Source: Dictyostelium discoideum
Lineage: Eukaryota
Direction of reading: 5' to 3'
Assembly (NCBI GenBank): GCA_000004695.1
Contig: CM000151.3
Location: forward strand, 6,208,001 to 6,272,000
Length of the DNA: 64,000 nucleotides
The notes below the pieces were generated by a model, which saw only the letters and a program-made list of their open reading frames with translations, did not search any database and had not been told where the DNA came from. Shown here piece after piece: positions 47,222 through 47,380 of the stretch; within the stretch, counting starts at the first letter, position 1; each line of letters begins with the position of its first letter. The translations under genes and the position numbers were made by a program.

Positions 47222-47380
47222 AAAAAACATCATATGGATGACTGATACATCTGAAATTAAATTTCAATAATAATAACATTATTATTGAAATTAATAATAA
47301 CATTATTATTGAAATTAATAATAACATTATTATTGAAATTAAATTTCAGATGTATCGGTCATCCATATGATGTTTCTGAG
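47222..47380. repeat. Long hairpin: 50-bp perfect inverted arms flanking 3 tandem copies of a 24-bp self-palindromic unit (AACATTATTATTGAAATTAATAAT)
   Basis: Left arm AACATCATATGGATGACTGATACATCTGAAATTAAATTTCAATAATAAT, right arm its reverse complement ATTATTATTGAAATTAAATTTCAGATGTATCGGTCATCCATATGATGTTT (1 mismatch). About 320 bp upstream of the TnpB-like ORF. Confidence 0.85.

Follow-up and report, generated by a model that had tools for sequence, protein, structure and literature searches.

A near-perfect inverted repeat of ~151 bases was found in an intergenic region of a 64-kb window (the whole stretch of DNA analysed, with positions counted from its first base), which we take to be part of chromosome 2 of Dictyostelium discoideum AX4. 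The hairpin formed by this repeat is real and strongly non-random, and comparison with orthologous loci suggests that it is a young, lineage-specific palindrome, private to AX4 among the sampled genomes (probability roughly 0.55). The window has a G+C content of ~16 to 33%, long A/T runs, and Asn/Gln-rich open reading frames (ORFs), and the D. discoideum genome is ~80% A+T. The ORF at 48669-50810, encoding a BipA-like protein, corresponds exactly to D. discoideum AX4 DDB_G0276121 (XP_643254), and the ORF at 60498-61319 is identical to AX4 Dph5. A minus-strand Gln-rich gene (main ORF, 40649-44464) and the BipA-like gene border the long intergenic region that contains the hairpin. Elsewhere, the window contains an assembly gap (100 N, 11939-12038) and a tRNA-Arg(UCU) gene (19029-19101, minus strand), which is its only Rfam/ARAGORN match. 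The tRNA genes of D. discoideum are targets of TRE retrotransposon integration.

Base-by-base pairing about a centre at 47300 revealed that 48 of 50 positions are complementary between the left arm (47225-47274, AAACATCATATGGATGACTGATACATCTGAAATTAAATTTCAATAATAAT), which was also called by an inverted-repeat search, and the right arm (47326-47375), which is continuous with a slightly G+C-richer stretch (47376-47470). The two exceptions are T47243/G47357, a G:U wobble in plus-strand RNA, and A47259/A47341, and the longest perfect runs in the arms are 18, 15, and 15 nt. The 50-bp inverted arms described in the earlier note are therefore present, but they are not perfect, as had been claimed. The apex of the hairpin (47268-47342), as delimited by TRF and the minimum free energy (MFE) structures, is occupied by a tandem array (period, 24; 3.1 copies; 100% matches in TRF). 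The 24-bp unit can pair with itself only in part (ATTATT..AATAAT around GAAATT), but this is enough for the repeats to lengthen the stem and leave no open loop. In the predicted folds, the stem runs nearly to the centre, and the array overlaps the inner ends of the arms. The same note had placed three palindromic tandem copies in the loop; the tandem 24-bp array is there, in 3.1 copies, but the units are not fully palindromic and extend the stem instead of forming a loop. A coding reading of the 24-bp (8-codon) repeat was considered and rejected, with the ORFs crossing it being only 40 to 56 amino acids (aa) long and none having a homolog.

The folding energy of the hairpin is far beyond chance for both RNA and DNA. 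Over 171 nt, the MFE of the plus-strand RNA is -79.1 kcal/mol (z = -16.7), and the values for the minus-strand RNA and for DNA are -75.3 kcal/mol (z = -13.6) and -52.3 kcal/mol (z = -13.8), respectively, with 0 of 200 shuffles being as good in each of the three cases. Sequence, pairing, and energy together confirm the presence and position of the hairpin described in the earlier note. A 31-nt arm probe allowing up to 3 mismatches matched only the two arms in the 64-kb window, with 0 matches expected by chance. The best match of an arm 21-mer outside the hairpin (18/21 at 56000-56020, plus strand) falls at the start of the ORF at 55987-57732; this is no more than chance would give, and the site is not credible as a target. 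No Rfam family reached its gathering threshold near the hairpin, and the matches below threshold were to generic long-hairpin plant MIR models (29.7 bits versus a gathering score of 200). A scan for bacterial promoters and terminators, which is inapplicable to a eukaryote, showed no enrichment.

A second inverted repeat (47015-47160) lies upstream of the hairpin, as previously reported. It is built of TTCyAGATTCAGGAAT followed by an A run, in direct orientation at 47015-47047 and 47048-47080 and inverted at 47128-47160, with the copy at 47015-47047 being an extra direct copy of the left arm. The repeat has an exact 24-nt core (47050-47073/47135-47158) and an MFE of -44.5 kcal/mol (z = -6.6), and its presence is confirmed.

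Orthologous loci of 22 kb each were fetched from five genomes through members of the BipA protein cluster. They come from another D. discoideum strain (L001), Dictyostelium firmibasis (L002), two D. cf. discoideum (L003 and L005), and Dictyostelium citrinum (L004), and their gene order is identical. In colinear blastn comparisons, the window at 44.0 to 46.7 kb and at 48.44 to 48.8 kb aligned to each locus with 70 to 91% identity. The ~1.75 kb between them (46690-48440, with fuzzy AT-rich borders), delimited by colinear blastn and alignments, has no counterpart in any of the five loci. This AX4-specific block contains an 18-nt palindrome, the second inverted repeat, the hairpin, the stretch at 47376-47470, and an ORF at 47698-48314. 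In its place, L001 and L005 have ~105 to 125 bp of unrelated sequence. Since the outgroups are without the block, it is most simply explained as a gain in the AX4 lineage. No terminal inverted repeats of the block were found. The block takes the place of ancestral DNA instead of splitting it, a pattern that does not fit a clean transposon insertion. The source of the block was sought by blastn against the rest of the window and the five orthologous loci, with no match, and in a scan of viral contigs, with 0 matches. A metagenome scan gave only four 20-mer matches, which are chance matches to unrelated DNA of 40 to 58% G+C. In a local alignment, the 150 bp found only in L001 scored no better against the AX4 block than shuffled sequences did.

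The hairpin itself has no ancestral single-copy arm in the related loci, with both arms being situated within the AX4-only block. Its age can be judged from the arms. They differ at 2 of 50 positions, compared with a divergence of roughly 9 to 11% between the flanks of AX4 and L001, and the tandem units are 100% identical, which suggests that the hairpin is young.

One border of the block coincides with a palindrome in the other D. discoideum strain. A perfect 28-nt AT palindrome (AAATTAAATTGAAATTTCAATTTAATTT) is located at L001:9630-9657, exactly where the homology with AX4 ends. AX4 retains the left half of this palindrome (window 46672-46690) and diverges at its centre. In addition, a perfect 18-nt palindrome (ATGTTGAAATTTCAACAT) is found at 46967-46984 of the window, and of its 12-mer core TTGAAATTTCAA, the 64-kb window holds a single copy (46970, within the AX4-only block) and L001 also holds a single copy, at the breakpoint. 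These observations hint at palindrome-provoked breakage and rearrangement at the block border, although they amount to a single case with a short palindrome.

A scan for long inverted repeats that are not of low complexity picked up three such repeats in the AX4 window; the count was zero for the five orthologous loci of 22 kb. The largest lies at 38.5 kb, where arms at 38397-38588 and 38798-38987 are complementary at 183 of 192 positions and are separated by a spacer of ~205 nt; the 9 mismatched positions represent five substitutions and one 4-nt indel. L001, L003, and L005 all carry the right arm and spacer in almost invariant form, whereas the left arm is missing from these three loci and occurs in AX4 only. 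The repeat is thus identified by sequence comparison as a local inverted duplication of ~190 bp in the AX4 lineage. With its parent arm conserved and its left arm private to AX4, it shows that local inverted duplication, as would be required for the 47.3-kb hairpin, operates in this lineage. The conservation of the right arm and spacer is unusual for Dictyostelium intergenic DNA, and this segment may possibly correspond to a noncoding RNA or a promoter.

For the hairpin at 47.3 kb, formation by local inverted duplication and slippage, during or after acquisition of the block, is the most likely origin in light of the comparisons above. A stretch of ~50 to 75 bp may have been copied in inverted orientation beside itself through fold-back or template-switch repair or replication, and the central 24-bp unit would then have been expanded by slippage to 3.1 identical copies. 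The duplication would have taken place inside, or together with, the 1.75-kb insertion or replacement acquired by the AX4 lineage, and its timing would be after the split of AX4 from the other sampled strains of the D. discoideum group. At the DNA level, the hairpin is most likely a neutral by-product. With respect to function, it may be either a silent by-product or a proto-miRNA or hairpin-siRNA locus. A transcript running through the hairpin on either strand would be predicted to fold into a ~70-bp duplex, which is the type of substrate of the DrnB/RbdB Dicer-like microprocessor.

DrnB-dependent miRNA precursors have been described in D. discoideum (Liao 2018, PMC6161686; Edelbroek 2024, PMC11014262). 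The published miRNA hairpins of this species are 101 to 179 nt long, have energies of -0.43 to -0.73 kcal/mol/nt, and are mostly intergenic (PMC6161686, Table S1; PMC11014262, Table S3). At 22°C, the 151-nt hairpin has energies of -0.66 (plus strand) and -0.62 (minus strand) kcal/mol/nt. These values are below the -0.2 kcal/mol/nt used for miRNA hairpins, and 48 of 50 duplex positions are paired here, where at least 60% is expected. For a miRNA gene, the same studies also use at least 10 reads each of mir-5p and mir-3p, a 2-nt 3' overhang, precise 5' ends, and DrnB dependence (PMC6161686; PMC11014262).

The start site of D. discoideum pri-miRNAs is a G after a T-rich run (PMC6161686). A candidate motif of this kind, T19 followed by G47145 (47120-47145, plus strand), is situated 80 nt upstream of the stem, and on the minus strand, a T-rich run precedes G47499/47500, ~125 nt before the stem. 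Since T and A runs are ubiquitous in the genome, this promoter-like layout is weak evidence. T25G has been reported as the pri-miRNA start-site motif of mir-1177 and mir-7105 (PMC6161686). It occurs at six sites in the 64-kb window, including 46321-46346 (plus strand), so the motif alone is poorly predictive. In AX4, the T run and G are followed after 80 nt by the hairpin, an A run (47506-47521), a T22 run (47579-47600), and the ATG of the downstream ORF at 47698, 323 nt after the stem. The mir-1177 locus has the same order of elements: a 26-T run precedes a start site 116 nt ahead of mir-5p, an A run is present, and the downstream gene, which has a T-tract promoter of its own, begins 361 nt beyond the stem-loop.

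Presence in one lineage is likewise a property of miRNA loci in these amoebae. D. discoideum and D. firmibasis have almost no miRNAs in common, and whole miRNA "modules" of ~2 kb are present or absent between their orthologous intergenic regions (Edelbroek 2024, PMC11014262). Unusually long, near-perfect hairpins mark young miRNAs (PMC11014262). The AX4 intergenic region is longer by ~1.75 kb than those of the five related loci, including D. firmibasis, and in every feature compared, the locus is consistent with the published description of a miRNA module. By this analogy, it appears to be built like a newborn hairpin-RNA or proto-miRNA module. However, the arm sequence is absent from Table S1 of Liao 2018, from Table 2 and the supplements of Meier 2016, and from the supplementary data of Edelbroek 2024, and the sequence strings of the arms do not occur in the main text of the literature searched. 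The hairpin is therefore not among the prominent, precisely diced miRNAs of these data sets. In terms of length and energy per nucleotide, the candidates ddis_Cluster_1065, 1680, and 1861 have values near those of the hairpin, with no exact match. Among the options raised in the earlier note, a hairpin-RNA or miRNA precursor is the only one whose testable features are seen at this locus, and it may be regarded as viable: energy per nucleotide, size, intergenic position, and lineage-specific presence speak for it, as does, weakly, the T run and G upstream, and the missing entries in the miRNA tables speak against it. That the hairpin already yields 21-nt small RNAs is conceivable but rather doubtful.

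The hairpin could correspond to an already described and expressed miRNA of the Avesson 2012 set of 17 (ddi-mir-7089 to 7105). The hairpin anatomy fits such a gene, and ddi-mir-7105, on chromosome 2, is one candidate. Pri-mir-7105 has been placed on the minus strand of chromosome 2 at 4787074-4789074, 69 nt from a T25G (PMC6161686, Table S3), and extension of the T25G at 46321-46346 (plus strand) by 69 nt and then by 2 kb gives 46415-48415, which would cover the hairpin if the window ran in reverse orientation to the chromosome. However, with six T25G sites in the window, this match is weak and probably due to chance. Along chromosomes 3 to 6, DDB_G numbers increase linearly, and a rough extrapolation of this trend, which we have extended to chromosome 2 ourselves, would put DDB_G0276121 near 6 Mb instead of 4.79 Mb. 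Moreover, the unique start-site motifs of mir-1178/1179, mir-7095, mir-7098, and mir-7104, also on chromosome 2, are absent from the window, and the arms are missing from the tables of Liao 2018, Meier 2016, and Edelbroek 2024. Identity with a named miRNA is thus very unlikely.

An insertion in the AX4 lineage of a MITE or foldback transposon, or of a D. discoideum DNA transposon such as thug, DDT, or Tdd with the hairpin as its end, is similarly improbable. The presence/absence polymorphism of 1.75 kb does look like a transposon insertion, and miRNA-producing hairpins are a known feature of thug-S elements (PMC4894637; PMC6161686). However, the block lacks terminal inverted repeats, and ~105 to 125 bp of ancestral DNA was replaced and not simply interrupted. 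The check for target-site duplications at the hairpin edges came out negative, with none beside the hairpin (flanks, CAAATAAA and CTGAGACC) and no direct repeat in the flanking sequences ...CTCAAATAAA and CTGAGACCAA... on its two sides. No second copy was found in ~175 kb, comprising the 64 kb of AX4 and 110 kb of related loci, and the ORF in the block has no homolog, although annotated transposon ORFs would be expected in protein collections. The proposal in the earlier note of a MITE or foldback transposon end was not upheld by these results, and a low-copy element, likewise unsupported by the sequences compared, has a small probability. The hairpin is very probably no transposon end.

A cloning or assembly artefact of the AX4 reference, in the form of a chimeric inverted join, would account for the fact that all three long inverted repeats of the region are found in AX4 only, and the window does include an assembly gap of 100 N (11939-12038). 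However, artefactual inverted joins give identical arms, whereas those of the hairpin differ at 2 of 50 positions and those of the 38.5-kb repeat at 9 of 192 (five substitutions and a 4-nt indel). This divergence of the arms of both repeats (4 to 5%, including an indel) argues against an artefact, and the ~1.7 kb of unique sequence around the hairpin is likewise specific to AX4. An artefactual origin is therefore exceedingly unlikely.

The ORF downstream of the hairpin (47698-48314, plus strand) is an orphan. It is predicted to consist of two exons (47698-47805 and 48042-48314) encoding ~123 aa, joined in frame across a GT..AG intron that contains AAT repeats ([AAT]56 tract at 47839-48008), and it has its own T22 run upstream (47579-47600). 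The only other ORF of at least 60 aa in the block is an 88-aa read-through of its first exon into the AAT repeats. The ORF had been called TnpB-like, and the resemblance lies in a short motif, NRDNVGACNI, preceded by several cysteines in the ORF at 48042-48311. This motif is reminiscent of the end of TnpB and Fanzor proteins that bears RuvC-III and the zinc ribbon. Those proteins are several hundred aa long, and the orphan ORF encodes at most ~125 aa. Neither the ORF at 48042-48311 nor the spliced 123-aa model matched Pfam, including the OrfB/TnpB families, at an E value of ≤1, and no match was found in NCBIfam or among PDB sequences. In a word-indexed search of 5.8 billion proteins, none shared even three 5-mers with the ORF, and a full HMMER pass over 1.84 billion cluster representatives gave no match at an E value of ≤0.001. 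The TnpB-like label thus found no support in any of these searches. Exact-sequence look-ups of eight ORFs of the block showed all of them to be absent from the protein collection, and a single-sequence AlphaFold2 model of the orphan ORF was uninformative (pLDDT, 43). The ORF may be a de novo or decaying gene specific to AX4.

Fanzors are listed in Dictyostelium fasciculatum and Polysphondylium pallidum, and D. discoideum is missing from the listed hosts (Bao and Jurka 2013, PMC3627910). The idea of an IS200/IS605-like or Fanzor element, with the hairpin in subterminal position and the adjacent ORF serving it, for which only the cysteine-preceded NRDNVGACNI motif speaks, has a negligible chance of being correct and is refuted as far as sequence methods reach, because the host is a eukaryote, the short ORF fails every homology search (Pfam, NCBIfam, PDB, and two protein collections) and gives no informative AlphaFold model, neither a TnpA nor any homolog of the six-frame peptides around the hairpin was found, and both hairpins lie together 320 to 680 bp upstream of the ORF with none downstream, that is, at its 5' side, whereas the guide RNAs of TnpB and Fanzor are at the 3' end.

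The preferred reading, a young palindrome private to AX4, is of interest mainly because one window holds two dated inverted duplications. At 38.5 kb, the parental arm is kept in other strains; at 47.3 kb, the repeat is in new DNA and has the size of a Dicer substrate. Dictyostelid miRNAs turn over very fast, with modules appearing and vanishing between sister species, and we know of no account of how these modules arise. A bolder version, in which a hairpin-RNA or miRNA gene has been caught at birth after an intergenic AT-rich palindrome broke and repair inserted ~1.7 kb with near-perfect foldbacks, is clearly unlikely, but if true, it would, together with the 38.5-kb case, explain concretely at the DNA level how species-specific miRNA modules are gained so rapidly in Amoebozoa. 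Small RNAs mapping to both repeats would make these dated, strain-level examples of de novo birth of hairpin genes; if none map, the repeats would give a measure of the frequency of palindrome birth in a genome of ~80% A+T. In either case, a false TnpB/IS605 lead has been removed from a eukaryotic genome.

Like IS200/IS605 and Fanzor elements, the locus has a hairpin near a small ORF with an RD..A.NI-like motif. However, IS200/IS605 elements carry short imperfect subterminal palindromes at both ends, which the AX4 block does not have, and such palindromes are far shorter than the AX4 hairpin, with its stem of ~70 bp. They also have a TnpA Y1 (HUH) transposase and a prokaryotic host, both of which are lacking here, and a TnpB (OrfB) with a RuvC-like domain and a zinc ribbon, for neither of which the AX4 ORF gave a match. 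Fanzors encode a large split-RuvC protein within a recognisable transposon, and the block contains none; relative to an omega-RNA, the hairpin is on the wrong side of the ORF. MITEs and foldback transposons resemble the hairpin in being compact inverted repeats that are AT-rich at the centre and vary in presence between strains. Unlike them, the AX4 hairpin has no target-site duplication, is single copy in all sequence examined, and lies inside a larger unique block instead of being the insertion itself.

AT-rich palindromes mediate rearrangement at human PATRR sites, and palindromes are fragile in yeast. The 28-nt AT palindrome of L001 at the point where AX4 homology breaks off resembles these cases, but it is short, it is a single instance, and its causal role is putative. 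Young plant MIRNA genes are reportedly born by inverted duplication of a gene fragment, according to a model attributed to Allen et al. 2004. As in such genes, the AX4 hairpin is a long, almost perfect foldback with little divergence between its arms, and one arm is contiguous with a G+C-richer, exon-like stretch. In contrast to them, no parent or target gene was found for it: concatenated six-frame peptides of the arms and the exon-like flank gave no match at an E value of ≤1, and the 18/21 match in the window is at chance level.

Compared with the miRNA loci of D. discoideum itself, the centre of the AX4 stem differs in being a tandem repeat, which has not been reported for known ddi-mir loci, and the sequence is absent from the miRNA tables searched. 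Like these loci, the hairpin is intergenic, ~150 nt long, has an energy of -0.62 to -0.66 kcal/mol/nt, and is preceded by a T run and then a G, a frequent combination in this genome, and the locus is missing from the D. firmibasis intergenic region, as is seen for miRNA modules. [quoted passage not shown]
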